DNA from: a bacterium
GTDB lineage: Bacteria; Patescibacteriota; Minisyncoccia; Phycocordibacterales; UBA6065
Length of the DNA: 64,000 nucleotides
Assembly: GCA_030680695.1 (NCBI GenBank)
Contig: JAUXUT010000149.1
Location: 357,000-420,999, forward strand
Direction: 5' to 3'
Under the pieces are notes generated by a model that saw nothing but the letters and a program-made list of their open reading frames with translations, did not search any database and was not told where the DNA came from. How positions within the stretch are numbered: the first letter of the stretch is position 1; every line of letters starts with the position of its first letter. A program made the position numbers and the translations under genes. Positions 7,221-51,119 of the stretch are shown piece after piece.

Positions 7221-7249
7221 TTGCTAATCTTTTCTAGCTCGTGTAATAC
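7221..7249 (+). promoter_or_regulatory. promoter for topA (TTGCTA-17-TAATAC)
   Basis: ttgctaatcttttctagctcgtgTAATAC, with the ATG at 7260 about 11 nt downstream of the -10 element. Confidence 0.35.
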
Positions 7250-7259
7250 TTGCCCACAT

Positions 7260-9521
7260 ATGAGCAAACTTCTCATCGTAGAGTCGCCGGCAAAAGCAAA
7301 AACAATCGGGAAGTATCTCGGCGACGAATATGTCGTTGTTGCATCGGTCGGCCATGTGCGCGACCTGCCGAAATCAAACAAAAAGGCCATCGATATGGAA
7401 AGCTTTACGCCCCATTACGTTGTGTCCGAAGGCAAGGAATCAGTTCTTGCCGATATCAAACGTCTCGCCAAAAAATCTGATGAGGTCTTGCTCGCAACCG
7501 ACCCCGACCGCGAGGGTGAGGCTATCGCATGGCACATCGCCGAAGCCGTAGAATTCGGTGACAAACCGGTACGCCGCGTGGTATTCAACGAAATAACCAA
7601 GGACGCGATTATTGAGGCCCTCAAAAGCCCGCGCGACATCGATCAGAACCTACGCCAGGCACAAGAGGCCCGCCGTGTCCTCGACCGCCTCGTCGGATAC
7701 GACCTTTCTGGCATCATTTGGCAAAAGGTTCGTTATGGATTGTCGGCGGGCCGTGTGCAATCCCCCGCTCTCCGCATCCTAGTCGAACGCGAACGAGAAA
7801 TAGAAGCTTTTAAACCGGAAGGTTATTTTACTATCGTCGCCGAGACAAAAGCCGACACAAAAACAAACAAGAATGAATCTGCGTCGCTTTCACTCACCTG
7901 TTCTGAAGAACCCCGCGACCAAAAAGAAGCCGGCCGAATAGTAACCGTCGGCAAGAAAGAAGTTTGGTCCGTCGCAGACGTACAGGAAACCGAAGCCAAG
8001 CGATCTCCTAAGGCACCATTCACTACATCAACCCTGCAACAGGCGGCTTCGACACGTCTTGGATTCTCGCCATCTCGAACAATGCGTGCCGCCCAAAAAC
8101 TCTATGAAGCTGGCCACATCACGTACATGCGAACCGACTCGACTAACCTTTCAAAACAAGCTGTCGCAAATATAGCAGGCACAATCGAAAAGTTGTTCGG
8201 CAAAGAACTCGTCGAAACGCGCGTATACGCTACGAAATCCAAAAATGCCCAGGAGGCTCACGAAGCTGTCCGCCCAACAGACGCAAACAAACGCGCGGCC
8301 GGATCAACTGATGACGAAAAAAGGTTGTATGGTCTCGTCTGGGCTCGCACCGTCGCGTCGCAAATGAAAGACGGCCGGGTCATGCGCACTAAAATACTCG
8401 CAAACATCGCTTCCAAATCCGTGCCAGATTTCCAGGCAAACGGTTCACGCACCATATACAAAGGATGGCTCGAAGCAGATCCGGCCGCACAAGGCGACGA
8501 CGTCGAATTGCCAAAAGTTTCGAAAGGCGACGCTCTTTCACTCGTCGACATCGTGGCCACCCAGAAATTCACCGAACCACCATCACGATATTCCGAGGCG
8601 GGCCTCGTCAAAGAGCTCGAATCACGCGGCATTGGTCGACCATCCACATACGCATCGATCATCAAGACGCTCGAAGACCGCGAATATGTGACCAAGGAAG
8701 GACGATCGCTCAAACCAACTGACACGGGCATGGTGGTAAGCTCGTTCCTCGAAGATAATTTTGGACAATATATAAGTGACACCTTCACCGCTGAAATGGA
8801 AGACAAGCTCGACGCCATCGCAGACGGTTCGATGGGATACGAGAAAACCCTCGCTGATTTCTATAAACCATTCAGCAAGGAAGTAAAAGCAAAAGAAAAA
8901 CTCGACAAAGCCACCACCCTCGGCGAGGCAGACCCTTCGATGAAATGTCCGAAGTGCGGCGGTTCCATGATCATCAAGCTCGGCCGATCAGGCAAATTCC
9001 TGTCCTGCGCCAAATACCCGGACTGTGACGGCGCCCTTATGTTGGATGGAACAGAAATGCCAAAAGACAAGGTCATCGGCGTTCATCCCGCGCACAACGT
9101 TCCGATCACGCTAAAGTCCGGAAAATACGGCCCGTATGTCGAAATCGAACTGCCACCAGATCCAGAACCTGTTCCTGTGGAAGGCGAAAAGAAAAAGCGA
9201 AAATCAAAAAAGGCTCCAAAACCAAAACTCCGTCGCGCATCTGTACCAAAGGAAGTAAAACCCGAAGAAGTCACCCTCGACCAGGCCGTGCATTACCTTT
9301 CATTGCCACGCCAGCTCGGCACTCATCCTAAAACACAAAAAGTCATCACTGCAAATATAGGCAGATTCGGCCCATACATCGTCCATGACGGCGATTTCCG
9401 CTCAATCAAAAAAGCGTCGGGCGACGATGTGTACAAGATAGGGCTTGATCGAGCTCTCGAGATGCTCAAAGAACCGAAGAAACCGCGAGGATTTAATAAG
9501 AAGAAAAAGCTTGACAAATAG
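7260..9521 (+). CDS. topA: DNA topoisomerase I
   Basis: MSKLLIVESPAKAKTIGKYLG...VGHVRDLP TOPRIM motif and a C-terminal Zn-ribbon (CPKCGG...CAKYPDCDG). The true start is the ATG at 7260; the ORF track over-extends to 7221. Confidence 0.9.
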   Translation: MSKLLIVESPAKAKTIGKYLGDEYVVVASVGHVRDLPKSNKKAIDMESFTPHYVVSEGKESVLADIKRLAKKSDEVLLATDPDREGEAIAWHIAEAVEFGDKPVRRVVFNEITKDAIIEALKSPRDIDQNLRQAQEARRVLDRLVGYDLSGIIWQKVRYGLSAGRVQSPALRILVEREREIEAFKPEGYFTIVAETKADTKTNKNESASLSLTCSEEPRDQKEAGRIVTVGKKEVWSVADVQETEAKRSPKAPFTTSTLQQAASTRLGFSPSRTMRAAQKLYEAGHITYMRTDSTNLSKQAVANIAGTIEKLFGKELVETRVYATKSKNAQEAHEAVRPTDANKRAAGSTDDEKRLYGLVWARTVASQMKDGRVMRTKILANIASKSVPDFQANGSRTIYKGWLEADPAAQGDDVELPKVSKGDALSLVDIVATQKFTEPPSRYSEAGLVKELESRGIGRPSTYASIIKTLEDREYVTKEGRSLKPTDTGMVVSSFLEDNFGQYISDTFTAEMEDKLDAIADGSMGYEKTLADFYKPFSKEVKAKEKLDKATTLGEADPSMKCPKCGGSMIIKLGRSGKFLSCAKYPDCDGALMLDGTEMPKDKVIGVHPAHNVPITLKSGKYGPYVEIELPPDPEPVPVEGEKKKRKSKKAPKPKLRRASVPKEVKPEEVTLDQAVHYLSLPRQLGTHPKTQKVITANIGRFGPYIVHDGDFRSIKKASGDDVYKIGLDRALEMLKEPKKPRGFNKKKKLDK

Positions 9522-9539
9522 GCCTCACGGGTGTATAAT
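9511..9539 (+). promoter_or_regulatory. perfect-consensus sigma70 promoter (TTGACA-17-TATAAT) overlapping the topA stop and firing antisense into the parB 3' end
   Basis: gcTTGACAAAtaggcctCACGGGTGTATAATTagggTATAAGct. The same module recurs at 37586 and 45133. Confidence 0.5.
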
Positions 9540-9578
9540 TAGGGTATAAGCTAGTTAAAACCCTGGTGCTTTAAGCCT

Positions 9579-10559
9579 TTAAAGAGAAAAATTCTTTATA
9601 GAGTACAGGTCCTCGGTATTTTCATCCTCTTTCTTTTCTTCAACAGAACGGTCATCAACAGGAAGCACTGGTTCGGAAGGAACGCCTGCGGCGACTTCTT
9701 GGGTTAGAGATGGCGGCACGGCCCCTTTAGACTGAACAATGTTCAATATCGCCTTGAGGTCTTCTGGCGAGAAAAAGTCTATGGTGATCTTGCCTCCCTT
9801 TTGTTTCTGCTCGATCGAAACGCGGGTACCAAAAGTTTCGGAAAGTTTTTGTTCCATTTCAAGCATCTCTGGATCGAACATGCGTTCCTTTTTTCGCGCC
9901 TTCTCGACGGCGATTTTGCGAGCGATCATTTCGGTCTCACGTACAGTAAGCCTCTTGGAAAGTATCTCTTTGAAAAGAGTTGACTGCTCTTCAGGTCTGT
10001 CTGAAAGCATAAGAAGCGGTCGTGCATGACCCTCGCTTATCTTCCCTGCCGAAAGCGAGTCAAGGATATCAGTCGGCAAGGCAAGCAAACGTATCGAATT
10101 CGAAACATATTCGCGTGACTTGCCGATTTTCTCGGCGACTTGAACGTGCTTGAGGCCGAATTCAGATACAAGTTGGCTGAACGAACGGGCCCTTTCTACT
10201 GGGTTGAGATCCTCGCGTTGAAGGTTCTCTATGATGGCAAGTTCAAGCTTGACCCGAGCGTCGTCGGTGTTGGCGCGTATTATCGCCGGCACCTGCGGAA
10301 GGCCCAGAAGTTTAGATGCGCGCAGGCGGCGCTCGCCGGATATGAGCTCATACTCAACAACCATGCCTCCGTCTTCTTTATGAATCTCTGTCCTTGTGAC
10401 GGTAAGGGGCTGGAGCAATCCGTACATGCGAATTGACTCGGCAAGGTCACGAAGTGCGGCCTCGTCGAATTCACGACGTGGCTGATATGGGTTCGGACGC
10501 ACCTTGTCGGTGTCTATCCAGAATATCGAGTCTCCAAAAAATTGGGATGGCTGTGGCAT
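9579..10559 (-). CDS. parB: chromosome partitioning protein ParB/Spo0J
   Basis: ISGERRLRASKLLGLPQVPAII is the ParB box, with an HTH and a C-terminal dimerisation region. The true start is the MPQPSQ ATG at 10559; the track's N-terminal extension (…GRDSNPQ…) is the antisense translation of tRNA-Leu. Confidence 0.8.
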   Translation of the reverse strand: MPQPSQFFGDSIFWIDTDKVRPNPYQPRREFDEAALRDLAESIRMYGLLQPLTVTRTEIHKEDGGMVVEYELISGERRLRASKLLGLPQVPAIIRANTDDARVKLELAIIENLQREDLNPVERARSFSQLVSEFGLKHVQVAEKIGKSREYVSNSIRLLALPTDILDSLSAGKISEGHARPLLMLSDRPEEQSTLFKEILSKRLTVRETEMIARKIAVEKARKKERMFDPEMLEMEQKLSETFGTRVSIEQKQKGGKITIDFFSPEDLKAILNIVQSKGAVPPSLTQEVAAGVPSEPVLPVDDRSVEEKKEDENTEDLYSIKNFSL

Positions 10560-10619
10560 ACGGTTGGTGAGAAGAGATACAAGGATTTTATCATACAAAT
10601 TATCTTGAGGAAGAATTGA

Positions 10620-10648
10620 TTGAGAAAAGCTCTCCTTTAGTGTAGATT
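10620..10648 (+). promoter_or_regulatory. promoter for tRNA-Leu(CAA) and the downstream endonuclease (TTGAGA-17-TAGATT)
   Basis: TTGAGAaaagctctcctttagtgTAGATT; the -10 element ends about 10 nt before the tRNA 5' end. Confidence 0.35.
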
Positions 10649-10658
10649 TTGCATGTAT

Positions 10659-10739
10659 GCCGAGGTGGCGAAATGGCAACCGCAATCGACTCAAAATCGA
10701 TCGTCGCAAGACTTGAGGGTTCGAGTCCCTCCCTCGGCA
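10659..10739 (+). tRNA. tRNA-Leu (anticodon CAA), class II
   Basis: GCCGAGG acceptor pairs with CCTCGGC; anticodon stem ATCGA/TCGAT with loop CTCAAAA; long variable arm; T-arm GAGGG-TTCGAGT-CCCTC. Confidence 0.8.
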
Positions 10740-10740
10740 C

Positions 10741-11316
10741 ATGATGCATACGCCCAATACAGCCTATATCGTAGGGGTGGCTCTTGGCGACGGGAATCTC
10801 TCTAATCCCAATGGTCGAGCCGTCAGGCTGCGTATAACGTGTGACAAAAAGTACCCGAAGGTTATAGAGAACATACTGATATCATTGAGAGTGGGTCTTC
10901 CTGACAACAAGGTAAGTCTCGTGTATCGGAATGCTCGATGCCTTGATATATCATGTTATTCAAATAAGCTTGAGAACTTACTCGGATGGCGAGCCGATCT
11001 TGGCTCGAAATACCTTCAAAGGGTTCATGTGCCTTCTTGGATATTCAGAGATCCCTGGCTTATCCGACCATGCGTTCGCGGTCTTATAGAGACTGATGGG
11101 TGTGTGTTCACTGACAGGGGCTATACTCATGTCAACTTCACGACTATTATTCCGGAACTAGCGACAGATATGGAAAGAATGCTCACAATTCTGGGATTTA
11201 CGTATTCGACTCAACTAATAATTGCGAAAAGCTCAAATCGTAAGCCAAAATATGTCATAAGGATTTGCAAAAGAGGCAAAGAGTTCGTGGACGAATTTGG
11301 TATAGACAAAAATTAG
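10741..11316 (+). CDS. LAGLIDADG homing endonuclease, two-motif single-chain type
   Basis: VGVALGDGNL and VRGLIETDGCV are the two LAGLIDADG motifs. The ATG lies 1 nt after the tRNA-Leu 3' end. Confidence 0.75.
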   Translation: MMHTPNTAYIVGVALGDGNLSNPNGRAVRLRITCDKKYPKVIENILISLRVGLPDNKVSLVYRNARCLDISCYSNKLENLLGWRADLGSKYLQRVHVPSWIFRDPWLIRPCVRGLIETDGCVFTDRGYTHVNFTTIIPELATDMERMLTILGFTYSTQLIIAKSSNRKPKYVIRICKRGKEFVDEFGIDKN

Positions 11317-36049: not shown

Positions 36050-37138
36050 ATGTCAGAAGAAATCAAGAAGGTAGAGACGGTGATGAGCAAGATGCTTGCT
36101 GATACCGCTACTCCTCCTAACGTTGGCGACCTCATCGAAGGTTCTGTTATTGCTATCGACAAGAAGGGACTCTTCGTAGATCTCCCTCCATTCGGAACAG
36201 GTATCATTTACGGTCGCGAGTATATGCTCGCCCGCGATGTTATCAAGAAGATCAACATCGGAGACAGAGTCTCTGCAAAAATCGTTGATGCGTCGAACAA
36301 GGACGGCTATATCGAACTCTCTCTCAAGGAAGCTCGCCAGGCGCTCATTTGGACCGAGGCAGAGCAGGCAATCGTCGACAAAACCATCCTCGAACTCCCT
36401 ATCAAGGAAGCGAACAAGGGCGGTCTCATCATTGAATGGCAGGGCATCCAGGGCTTCCTCCCTGCGTCCCAGCTTAAACCAGAGCACTATCCACGTGTTC
36501 AGGACGGCGACAAGGATTCTATTCTTGTTGAGCTCAAGAAACTCGTTGGCACCCGCCTCGCAGTTTCGATCATTGGTGCGTTCCCCAAGGAAGGCAAACT
36601 CATTTTCTCTGAGAAAAACTCTGCAGCAGGTGCAGACAAAGCAGTCGCAGTTGCCAAGTTCAAAGTTGGCGATGAAGTTGAGGGTAAGGTCACCGGAATG
36701 GTGGACTTCGGTGTCTTCGTCAAAATCGATGAGGGTCTTGAAGGTCTCGTTCACATCTCTGAAATCGACTGGGCTCTCGTTGAGGATCCAAAGACTCGTT
36801 TCAAGGTTGGCGACAAGGTCAACGTGAAGGTCATCGAGGTTAAGGACGGCAAGGTGTCCCTCTCGATTAAGGCCCTCAAGCCAAACCCATGGTCAGAGGC
36901 AGGTAAGAAATACAAGAAGGACATGGCCGTAAAGGGCGTTGTCATCAAGTTCAACCGCCACGGAGCGCTCGCCTCGATCGAAGAAGGCATCGCTGGCCTC
37001 GTGCACGTCTCAGAGTTTGGCTCGGAAGAAAAGCTCCGCCAGAACCTCGAGCTCGGCAAAGTATATCCGTTCAAGATTACCCTCTTTGATGCGGGCAATC
37101 AGAAGATGACTCTCGCCTTCGCCGGAGAAAAGAAATAG
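36050..37138 (+). CDS. rpsA: 30S ribosomal protein S1 (four S1 domains)
   Basis: Repeated S1 OB-fold units (GDLIEGSVIAI..., GDRVSAKIVD..., GDEVEGKVTGMVDFGVFVKI..., GDKVNVKVIEV..., KGVVIKFNRHGALASI...). Confidence 0.85.
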   Translation: MSEEIKKVETVMSKMLADTATPPNVGDLIEGSVIAIDKKGLFVDLPPFGTGIIYGREYMLARDVIKKINIGDRVSAKIVDASNKDGYIELSLKEARQALIWTEAEQAIVDKTILELPIKEANKGGLIIEWQGIQGFLPASQLKPEHYPRVQDGDKDSILVELKKLVGTRLAVSIIGAFPKEGKLIFSEKNSAAGADKAVAVAKFKVGDEVEGKVTGMVDFGVFVKIDEGLEGLVHISEIDWALVEDPKTRFKVGDKVNVKVIEVKDGKVSLSIKALKPNPWSEAGKKYKKDMAVKGVVIKFNRHGALASIEEGIAGLVHVSEFGSEEKLRQNLELGKVYPFKITLFDAGNQKMTLAFAGEKK

Positions 37139-37155: not shown

Positions 37156-37455
37156 CTATATCGGCAAATCATGAACAGCACGCGCAATTATGCGCGTCGC
37201 TTTTCGTATATCTGATTTCCAGAGTTCCTGTTTGTGTCCAAGACCTATTCTCCGAACCAGATGGCGTCCTTCAAGTCTTTTCATAATAGTCGGTAGCGAG
37301 CCGCGTGGAATTTCCGAATATCGTGCAATCGCCGACATGCTTTTTGCTACTCGTGATAAAAGTAGGATTTTCCGTTCGGATTCAGAAAGGCCGAGTATGT
37401 CGAAGGCTTTTTGCAAAGCCGCGTCGCGATTCTCGTGTTCATTTTGCGTTTTCAT
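37156..37455 (-). CDS. winged-helix transcriptional regulator (TrmB/MarR-like HTH)
   Basis: 99 aa; LGLSESERKILLLSRVAKSMSAIARYSEIPRGSLPTIMKRLEGRHLVRR is an HTH plus wing. Confidence 0.5.
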   Translation of the reverse strand: MKTQNEHENRDAALQKAFDILGLSESERKILLLSRVAKSMSAIARYSEIPRGSLPTIMKRLEGRHLVRRIGLGHKQELWKSDIRKATRIIARAVHDLPI

Positions 37456-37487
37456 CCCTCCCTTATACCATCATCTTTTTGAGAACA

Positions 37488-37524
37488 GTGGGACATTTGA
37501 TGAAAATTTCATCAAATGTCCCAC
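37488..37524. promoter_or_regulatory. perfect 18-bp inverted repeat (candidate operator) between the HTH regulator gene and the sRNA promoter
   Basis: GTGGGACATTTGATGAAA-A-TTTCATCAAATGTCCCAC, 33 nt upstream of the regulator ATG. No T-run suits a terminator. Confidence 0.5.
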
Positions 37525-37585
37525 GTATTGAAAAAAGCATTAAAGAGCCCCGTAAGGCCGTTAAATGGCACGGTCGCCAAAAGGC

Positions 37586-37614
37586 TTGACAAAATAATGG
37601 CACGGGTGTATAAT
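37586..37614 (+). promoter_or_regulatory. perfect-consensus sigma70 promoter (TTGACA-17-TATAAT) for the ORF-less transcript
   Basis: gcTTGACAAAataatggCACGGGTGTATAATTgtaTATAAGtct; same module as at 9511. Confidence 0.6.
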
Positions 37615-37620
37615 TGTATA

Positions 37621-37762
37621 TAAGTCTTTCTGTTATTTTGTTTCTACCCGTCTCACGACGGGCACTCGGCCACAGGTACCAAGTCGGTTCCTTGTTGCGG
37701 CGGTGGTGGGGTATCATCCCGCGACAGAAATAAGGGCGCTCCACTCTGGAGCGCCCTTTTTA
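37621..37762 (+). ncRNA. candidate small non-coding RNA (~140 nt, unknown family)
   Basis: The transcript is bounded by the consensus promoter and the intrinsic terminator AAGGGCGCTCCactctGGAGCGCCC-TTTTTATTT. It contains no ATG and has internal hairpins (CCCGTCtcacGACGGG). Confidence 0.4.
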
Positions 37763-38407
37763 TTTATTGAACTGCGCGTTGTACTCACCCATCGCACGTT
37801 CCGGCGAATCGGTCACAGACATCTCGAGACAATCCACCACTTTCTTTATAACTTTTTTAAGTTCATCGGCTTCCTTGTCTTTGAACTCGGCGACTATGAA
37901 ATTGTCGGTGATGGTGTCGTGGTCTGGCTTCTTCAAAGCACCTTTGGCCGTGGCCGGTGTGATGCCAATGCGAATGCGATAAAAAGCCTGGGTGCCGAGG
38001 GCGCGGATGACCGAGTCAACACCCTTGTGGCCACCGGCACTTTTGTCCCACGATACTTTGGCCTTGCCCAAAGGTATGTCGAGATCGTCATGGACAACGA
38101 TAACGTCGGCGAGGGCCTTTTTTGGCTTGCCGTCCGGACCTTTCACTTTCTTCGCGCCTTTGGCGTATTTGGTTAAGGCCGAACCACTCTTGTTCATAAA
38201 GGTCTCGGGCAGTACGAGCGTTACCTTGCCTCCCTTACTTCCCTTGCCACCAACCTTCCCCGACAAAACCAAAGCATTGGTTTTCTTGTCGAATTCAAAA
38301 TCGCCGAGGTCCGCCTTTTTTGCAAACTTCTGCACTGCTTCGCGGCCCGCATTGTGTCGCGTGCCTTCGTATTCTTGTCCTGGGTTTCCTAGTCCGATGA
38401 TTATCAT
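37760..38407 (-). CDS. pth: peptidyl-tRNA hydrolase
   Basis: MIIIGLGNPGQEYEGTRHNAGREAV...VVHDDLDIPLGK matches the Pth catalytic His region. There is a ~35-aa C-terminal extension. Confidence 0.85.
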   Translation of the reverse strand: MIIIGLGNPGQEYEGTRHNAGREAVQKFAKKADLGDFEFDKKTNALVLSGKVGGKGSKGGKVTLVLPETFMNKSGSALTKYAKGAKKVKGPDGKPKKALADVIVVHDDLDIPLGKAKVSWDKSAGGHKGVDSVIRALGTQAFYRIRIGITPATAKGALKKPDHDTITDNFIVAEFKDKEADELKKVIKKVVDCLEMSVTDSPERAMGEYNAQFNK

Positions 38408-50802: not shown

Positions 50803-50889
50803 GGAGAGGTGGCAGAGTGGTCGAATGCACCAGTTTCGAAAACTGGCAGGCTCGCAAGGGTCTCGGGAGTTCGAATCTCCCCCTCTCCG
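50803..50889 (+). tRNA. tRNA-Ser (anticodon CGA), class II
   Basis: GGAGAGG acceptor pairs with CCTCTCC; anticodon stem CCAGT/ACTGG with loop TTCGAAA; long variable arm; T-arm GGGAG-TTCGAAT-CTCCC. Confidence 0.85.
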
Positions 50890-50895
50890 CAAGAC

Positions 50896-50926
50896 CAAAA
50901 AATCCATGCGAAGGCATGGATTTTTT
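50896..50926. terminator. perfect bidirectional terminator after tRNA-Ser
   Basis: AAAAAATCCATGC-gaag-GCATGGATTTTTT. Confidence 0.65.
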
Positions 50927-51119
50927 GCGTCTCTGCGGCAGAGTAAAGAGATGAGAAAGGCGGAGCGCCCGAGCGAAGCGAGGCCTCCCACATGGGAGGC
51001 TTTGTTATTCTCAAATCTTTATAAAATCTGGCGAGATGTAATTACCCCCTTATTATACACCCAAACATAGGTATTTGTCAAGCACCTCTCAGCACCACAC
51101 ATAAGGTAAGATTATTTCC

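Follow-up and report, generated by a model that had tools for sequence, protein, structure and literature searches.

Genes and signals between rpsA and pth

The window, that is, the whole stretch of 64,000 nucleotides analyzed here, derives from a member of the Patescibacteriota and has a GC content of 51%. The closest relatives of its pth gene are found in Paceibacterota/Parcubacteria MAGs. In the window, rpsA (S1) and pth converge on a spacer of 621 bp, which contains the gene for a small winged-helix regulator and, divergent from it, a putative small RNA (sRNA) unit; lepB and a hisS-like gene are further neighbours. The features of this segment are as follows.

36050-37138, plus strand: rpsA (S1)
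37156-37455, minus strand: gene for a 99-aa winged-helix regulator of the ArsR/SmtB-MarR-TrmB type, with its ATG at 37455
37180-37207, plus strand: likely S1 terminator, ACGCGCA-ATTA-TGCGCGT followed by CGCTTTTCGT
37462-37470, minus strand: putative extended -10 element of the regulator gene, TGgTATAAG, read from the sequence
37488-37524, no strand: perfect 18-1-18 palindrome, GTGGGACATTTGATGAAA-a-TTTCATCAAATGTCCCAC, 18/18 positions matched, centred 50.5 nt upstream of the regulator ATG
37564-37605, plus strand: direct repeat, two copies of the 10-nt sequence AATGGCACGG spaced 32 nt apart, bracketing the -35 hexamer of the sRNA promoter
37586-37614, plus strand: predicted sRNA promoter of the consensus sigma-70 type, TTGACA (37586-37591), 17 nt, TATAAT (37609-37614), matching at 12 of 12 positions
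37621-37731, plus strand: sRNA core of 111 nt, a four-way junction by fold prediction
37732-37763, plus strand: intrinsic terminator with a 12-bp stem (stem-loop 37732-37758) including 8 G-C pairs, an ACU loop and then the U tract TTTTTATTT
37760-38407, minus strand: pth, with its stop codon at 37760-37762

An earlier note on this DNA had described the promoter, the ATG-free stretch, the terminator common to this unit and pth, the perfect palindrome and, divergent from the promoter, the 99-aa gene. Each was found again at the same position and goes beyond what chance would produce. The likely S1 terminator falls within the 3'-terminal ~17 codons of the regulator gene, which converges on rpsA, and thus the variable C-terminus of the regulator overlaps the terminator of its neighbour.

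The spacer was compared across 29 pth-syntenic loci (13 genome and 14 metagenome loci at 39-80% identity, and two contigs at 91% and 88% pth identity). Among these relatives its length ranges from ~35 to ~800 nt. In L002, L005, L019, L021 and L024, S1 and pth are direct tail-to-tail neighbours, with the terminator alone in between. Other relatives have spacers of 200-800 nt made up of unrelated, often structured sequence, in which the following ORF-less structured segments (fold z-scores from -2.3 to -6.7) were recognized.

L003, 4635-4775, minus strand of the locus: ORF-less structured segment (z = -3.9)
L006, 4700-4915, minus strand of the locus: ORF-less structured segment
L009, 4640-4880, minus strand of the locus: ORF-less structured segment (z = -6.7)
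L028, 4838-5291, minus strand of the locus: ORF-less structured segments

These four are GC-rich, unrelated and without a real match in Rfam at gathering or permissive thresholds; some have their own promoter and terminator. The variability of the spacer, together with the direct abutment of S1 and pth in some relatives, argues that the window cassette is an insertion into a hypervariable spacer. No compositional anomaly of the cassette was seen. On the other side of the comparison, four loci (L001, L011, L012 and L013) have a common word, AAAGAACAA, ~300-450 nt past the pth stop codon, followed by a long GGGCGG(C/G)GGC...GCCGCCC hairpin and then by several hundred nucleotides of GC-rich sequence with no Rfam match. 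RNase P RNA was suspected in this GC-rich region, but no model backed the suggestion.

The winged-helix regulator and its palindrome

The only exact database entry for the regulator is a hypothetical protein, and a word-indexed protein search gave the impression of an orphan. That impression was dispelled by an exhaustive phmmer search, which returned 37 homologues (representatives), mostly of ~100 aa and 29-53% identical, with the family motif ILGLSxxERKI...AKS...IAR...IPRxSLxYxLKKLExRxLV...HK..W.SD. The Pfam TrmB model scores the window protein at 24.2 bits, just below its cutoff of 25.6, and two of the homologues carry precomputed TrmB/MarR_2 matches. A profile of the family finds the MarR-family PDB entry 3f3x at E = 2e-6. 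The AlphaFold (AF2) model (pLDDT 92.3) has five helices in the order H-H-H-H-beta wing-H (H4-21, H25-33, H40-47, H54-63, E67-70, E78-81, H83-95), and a Foldseek search of the PDB with it retrieved NolR, CzrA, SmtB and MarR, all at a probability of 1.0. The predicted model thus has the winged helix-turn-helix fold. By these comparisons the regulator is a member of a family of ~100-aa ArsR/MarR-like proteins and not an orphan.

Between the -10 element of the regulator gene and its ATG there are 6 nt (GGAGGG), and the predicted transcription start is the A of the ATG itself. The same layout was found in three homologues: TATGAT-GGGATC-ATG in L030, TATGAT-GGTTGG-ATG in L031 and TGgTAAAAT-TGAGAA-ATG in L033; the -10 box is extended (TGn) in the window and in L033. 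Since the distance is exactly 6 nt in all four loci, we infer that these regulator mRNAs are leaderless, in which case the GGGAGGG that precedes the ATG in the window is probably not a ribosome-binding site.

The neighbours of family members include genes for transketolase, CysRS, another class I aminoacyl-tRNA synthetase, RF-1/L31 and DnaB/RecR. In L030, L031, L036/L037 and L040/L041 the family member adjoins split transketolase genes (Transketolase_N / Transket_pyr + C), and the L036 member also adjoins ribulose-phosphate epimerase. The recurrence of transketolase hints at a pentose-phosphate regulon for most family members; the window copy is located elsewhere.

The palindrome, which ends 32 nt before the regulator ATG, is unique in the window, and none of 100 shuffles gave two matches. 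It extends to arms of 31 nt at 81% complementarity. When the DNA around nine members of the regulator family was examined, palindromes with a 1-nt centre located 48.5-50.5 nt before the ATG were found in four loci, namely the window, L030, L031 and L036. The L031 palindrome matches at 15/15 positions and is centred at 48.5 nt; that of L030 matches at 10/12 in a scan with 12-nt arms and at 11/15 with 15-nt arms, also centred at 48.5 nt; that of L036 scores 14/15, has arms reaching ~25 nt and is centred at 49.5 nt. L033 has an 18-1-18 palindrome (15/18) closer to the ATG, L034 has a weaker palindrome, and three TTTGATTA half-sites occur in L040. Common to the half-sites is ATTTnnTnAAA, and in both the window and L031 the palindrome is immediately followed by CCCACTGT. 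A two-fold symmetric site thus lies at a conserved upstream position across homologues.

Because homologues carry the same type of palindrome at the same distance from their own start codons, the window palindrome is best read as the predicted autoregulatory operator of the winged-helix regulator. Its two-fold symmetry implies that the regulator would bind as a dimer. The palindrome spans roughly positions -33 to -69 in the promoter of the regulator gene itself, and from this overlap negative autoregulation is predicted. The earlier note had proposed a dimeric operator for a helix-turn-helix protein that controls both the regulator and the sRNA. The homologous palindromes favour the first half of this proposal; for regulator control of the sRNA there is no support. 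No further copy of the operator was found, be it close to the sRNA promoter or in the rest of the window, and additional half-sites were at chance level.

The candidate sRNA gene

Perfect (12/12) promoters are rare: four were seen on both strands of the 64-kb window, against about 0.02 expected by chance. All four, at 9511, 37586 and 45133 on the plus strand and at 51081 on the minus strand, have in common the extended motif TTGACAaa-N13-GGTGTATAAT, which was also found upstream of genes or RNAs in the related loci L004, L008 and L017. It looks like the strong promoter type of this clade. The region of the sRNA promoter is unstructured (fold z = -0.4). The second copy of the AATGGCACGG repeat overlaps cacgGGTGTATAAT, a sequence that also occurs at the 9511 promoter, so that promoter context may account for part of the repeat. 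Of the four perfect promoters, three point at the 3' end of a convergent gene (9511 at a parB-like ORF, 37586 at pth and 51081 at a tRNA gene) and are predicted to yield short ORF-less RNAs. The two that lie outside the S1-pth spacer are these.

9511 (region 9511-9600), plus strand: 12/12 promoter inside the last codons of topA (7221-9521)
50892-51081, minus strand: second ORF-less unit, with a 12/12 promoter at 51081-51052 and a predicted RNA of ~150 nt (fold z = -6.4)

The 9511 promoter points at the 3' end of the parB-like ORF (9579-10757) across a spacer of only ~35 nt. The second ORF-less unit ends at a bidirectional terminator (~50895-50926) in common with the convergent tRNA gene (50803-50889), and no Rfam family matched it at threshold. 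At the remaining promoter, 45133, the distance from the -10 box to the ATG downstream is 8 nt, a hint that leaderless mRNAs may be common in the clade.

Downstream of the 37586 promoter, the segment 37615-37762 has no ATG, which is weak evidence taken alone (P about 0.10 for a random 148-mer). The segment from the start of the core through the terminator (37621-37762) has a predicted folding energy of -64.4 kcal/mol (z = -5.98). For the core alone the values are -41.6 kcal/mol and z = -3.76, which is good, not extreme, and the MFE and centroid structures are nearly identical; the reverse strand of the core gives -36.2 kcal/mol, z = -2.95 and an ill-defined ensemble. In the predicted structure the closing helix P1 (8 bp) is formed by UUUCUGUU and GACAGAAA, and its 5' strand is followed by a U-rich single strand of 12 nt, AUUUUGUUUCUA (37635-37646). 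P2 is CCCGUC-UCAC-GACGGG (6 bp with a UCAC loop), P3 is an irregular hairpin of 43 nt, and P4 is GUGGGGU-AUC-AUCCCGC (7 bp with a triloop). The terminator is bidirectional: the stop codon of pth abuts it from the other side, so that the two units share it tail to tail.

The sRNA contains no Shine-Dalgarno sequence, its predicted transcript start does not coincide with a start codon, and ORFs overlapping the sRNA have no Pfam match. An in-frame TTG at 37638 on the plus strand opens an Arg-rich frame of 31 codons, which ends with TAA at 37731-37733 just before the terminator stem; as it lacks a Shine-Dalgarno sequence and a family match, this frame (37638-37733) is probably non-coding. Beyond the terminator no plausible plus-strand ORF was found, the next feature on that strand being the antisense of pth. 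An ORF-less segment is thus bounded by its own promoter and a Rho-independent terminator, which makes the unit of ~140 nt a credible candidate sRNA gene, as the earlier note had held, with the transcript itself predicted.

The earlier note had seen no resemblance to SRP, 6S, RNase P or tmRNA, and the comparison with Rfam that it proposed agrees: no known housekeeping RNA matched. At gathering thresholds, a search of the whole window gave no match to the sRNA from any family, those of tRNAs, riboswitches and ribozymes included, and at E <= 10 the segment 37400-37800 gave only sub-threshold matches driven by the terminator or the palindrome; the SRP, 6S, RNase P, tmRNA and riboswitch models did not match the sRNA even at E <= 10. 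ARAGORN found nothing in the sRNA region. The top Rfam score for the sRNA, 26.4 bits against a gathering cutoff of 41, was to MmgR/suhB (RF00519). This match spans a short hairpin, a C-rich stretch and the GC-rich terminator with its U tail and is mostly driven by the terminator; L028, which has the same terminator and different upstream sequence, scores 23.8 bits on the same model. Assignment to MmgR/suhB was rejected on the score and on the pairing of the C-rich motif region in P4.

Searches of the 29 pth-syntenic loci by blastn, nhmmer and local alignment detected no homologue of the sRNA; only the terminator aligned, and only to L028. A single-sequence covariance model of the sRNA (R1), run with default filters and with filters off, matched only the sRNA itself in the window, the 29 pth loci, 12 regulator loci and 24 viral loci. 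This search covered about 275 kb of related bacterial loci and 181 kb of viral contigs, each of the latter containing a chance 16-mer of the RNA; the relatives may have homologues elsewhere in their genomes. Weak R1 matches in L036/L037 proved to be the operator palindrome folding as a hairpin. Pattern scans of viral contigs gave a chance-level number of 16-mer matches, none of which scored with R1, and blastn showed no similarity of the sRNA to phage and plasmid records. In the search of relatives for both elements that the earlier note had suggested, the palindrome type was recovered in L030, L031 and L036 and the sRNA in none of the loci reached.

In the L028 locus, with 91% pth identity, the terminator stems are identical to those of the window and the loop differs; homology ends at ATAAGGGCGC (window position 37730). 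Upstream of it are two other structured ORF-less units, with z-scores of -4.1 and -6.0 and a -10-like box before each, and the predicted RNAs of both the window and L028 would end at the terminator of pth itself. Short words in common with unit A of L028 (ACCCGUCUC and CCACAGG) were discarded as signs of homology, their spacing being incompatible with the fold. The L003 RNA, which has the same position and orientation, a P1-like CUUUCCUGG/CCAGAAAA pairing and a hairpin of 6 bp with a 4-nt loop, was likewise rejected as a homologue: it has a different MFE architecture and gets no score from R1.

Neither conservation nor covariation of the sRNA structure, nor any sign of purifying selection, was found among the loci reached (29 pth, 12 regulator and 24 viral loci). 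Given its absence from the relatives and the presence of a different RNA at a locus with 91% pth identity, the candidate is a plausible sRNA that is lineage-specific as far as the search extends. It would seem to be a gene particular to its lineage, young or acquired, and not a housekeeping RNA. No homologue was detected, and the case for its existence comes from signals in one sequence. Within the window no word of at least 12 nt complementary to the sRNA, and no target, was identified; RNAduplex on 70-nt start regions produced long gapped duplexes whose energies are uninformative.

Interpretation and comparison with known systems

The account that we favour, with moderate confidence, is that the spacer holds two adjacent and probably independent units, an autoregulated winged-helix repressor and a stand-alone, lineage-specific, presumably trans-acting sRNA. 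The first would encode a small winged-helix repressor that acts as a dimer and belongs to an ArsR/MarR-like family of Patescibacteria. Its mRNA would be leaderless (extended -10, 6 nt, ATG), and the protein would bind its own 18-1-18 palindrome over the -35 and upstream region of its promoter. The second would be an ORF-less RNA of ~140 nt, constitutively expressed from one of the strongest promoter types of the genome. This RNA is predicted to fold as a compact four-way junction with one exposed U-rich strand of 12 nt, and its transcription would stop at the bidirectional terminator that also ends pth. Our best guess is that it acts in trans, by base-pairing through the U-rich strand or by binding a protein.

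Alternatively, a winged-helix dimer at the palindrome might control both divergent promoters, the sRNA being the output of the regulator in a module of transcription factor and sRNA. We consider this unlikely. It draws on the divergent layout with a single large operator in a 130-bp intergenic region, and on the 10-nt direct repeat around the sRNA -35. It also draws on L033, where the edge of the 18-1-18 palindrome is 60 nt from a divergent TTGACT promoter (of a DEAD-box helicase gene), as compared with 61 nt in the window. This agreement might mean that the regulator does act on the divergent promoter, although it involves two loci only. However, the operator centre lies at about -115 from the sRNA start, outside the usual positions for repressors and activators, and no operator-like half-site is found near the sRNA promoter, which, as a full consensus match, should need no activator. 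Seven of nine distinct family loci have no divergent partner, and among these loci none but that of the window has an sRNA. The suggestion in the earlier note that one operator governs both units is therefore not upheld: the other regulator-family loci examined have no sRNA partner, with R1 finding nothing there, and the palindrome is centred ~115 bp upstream of the sRNA start.

Nearly the same low probability attaches to the view that the transcript has no sequence-specific function, and is either a local barrier or insulator against convergent transcription or tolerated cargo in a spacer with fast turnover. The orientation of three of the four perfect window promoters towards convergent gene ends, with short ORF-less RNAs as the predicted result, would suit such a role, as would the unrelated structured ORF-less segments at the same place in relatives (L028 even with the same terminator) and the fact that the RNA sequence is not conserved even where pth is 91% identical. 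Nevertheless, a mere barrier would have no need of a compact, well-defined four-way junction, and several relatives have nothing but a terminator between S1 and pth.

A more speculative proposal, which we regard as decidedly improbable, is that the S1-pth spacer is a swap site in this Paceibacteria clade, where unrelated, strongly transcribed, highly structured ORF-less RNAs replace one another, all pointing at pth. Selection would then favour the presence of some such RNA, or a cassette-exchange mechanism, and not one sequence, and the window RNA might in addition be wired to the relocated winged-helix repressor. If this and the wiring were true, the window would contain the first transcription factor and sRNA module described in a CPR bacterium.

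That the unit encodes a highly divergent housekeeping RNA (6S-like or SRP-like) or a tiny protein is very improbable. The strong constitutive-type promoter is typical of stable RNAs, but the SRP, 6S, RNase P and tmRNA models are negative at E <= 10, the fold is a four-way junction of 110 nt with an 8-bp closing stem and not a rod of at least 150 nt with a central bubble, and a close relative lacks the RNA at the syntenic position. The Arg-rich frame of 31 codons from the TTG at 37638 to 37731-37733 would be the candidate for a protein, yet it has no ATG, no Shine-Dalgarno sequence and no Pfam match, and its start codon is off the predicted transcript start. Least probable of all, and hardly to be entertained, is a ligand-sensing or conditional terminator whose read-through would yield an antisense RNA to pth in riboswitch-like cis control: a structured domain does lie directly before the terminator with a convergent gene beyond, and by inspection pairing between GGGCACUC in the core and GAGCGCCC, the terminator's 3' half, is conceivable at 7 of 8 positions, but this pairing is weak and would use a segment that P2/P3 already occupy, the terminator with its 12 bp and U tract is very strong, no riboswitch family matches at E <= 10, nothing is conserved, and no co-directional gene follows the terminator.

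Patescibacteria (CPR) have tiny genomes and few regulators, and to our knowledge almost nothing is known of RNA-based or transcriptional regulation in them; we found nothing usable in the literature on CPR sRNAs and leaderless mRNAs. The locus is of significance mainly because of this scarcity and because structured RNAs appear to turn over in the S1-pth spacer. If expressed, the RNA would be one of very few candidate riboregulators in Patescibacteria, and its complete non-conservation would show that sRNA genes can come and go rapidly even in reduced genomes. On firmer ground is the winged-helix family, whose operator is predictable and whose mRNAs are apparently leaderless. Regulator and palindrome form a directly testable regulator-operator pair for an uncultured lineage, and the motif ATTTnnTnAAA-N-TTTnAnnAAAT, ~50 nt before an ATG, could be used to seek the regulon.

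Compared with 6S RNA, the window RNA is likewise ORF-less and structured, with strong predicted expression, a closing stem and an apical stem. It differs in that its core is only ~110 nt, with a closing stem of 8 bp and a four-way junction, whereas in 6S RNA a long closing stem, a large central bubble and a terminal stem make up a rod of ~150-200 nt; the 6S model RF00013 did not match. The MmgR/suhB family (RF00519) is alphaproteobacterial, and in the window RNA the 'CAUCCC' sequence is paired in P4, so that there is no exposed anti-SD motif. The closest likeness of the putative RNA is to stand-alone bacterial sRNA genes in general, with which it has in common a promoter, a terminator, the lack of an ORF, a length of ~140 nt, a stable fold with an exposed strand and a position in a variable intergenic spacer; unlike them, it matches no family and is a prediction from one sequence, and we know of no RNA chaperone context for Patescibacteria. 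The regulator resembles the autoregulating repressors of the ArsR/SmtB and MarR/TrmB groups in its fold, its size of ~100 aa and an operator over its own promoter region. It differs from them in the unusual length of the operator (18-1-18, with ~25-nt arms in L036), in its apparently leaderless mRNA and in a TrmB score just under the cutoff. The locus thus appears to place a new orphan sRNA candidate beside a new repressor of a known class, the autoregulated winged-helix proteins.
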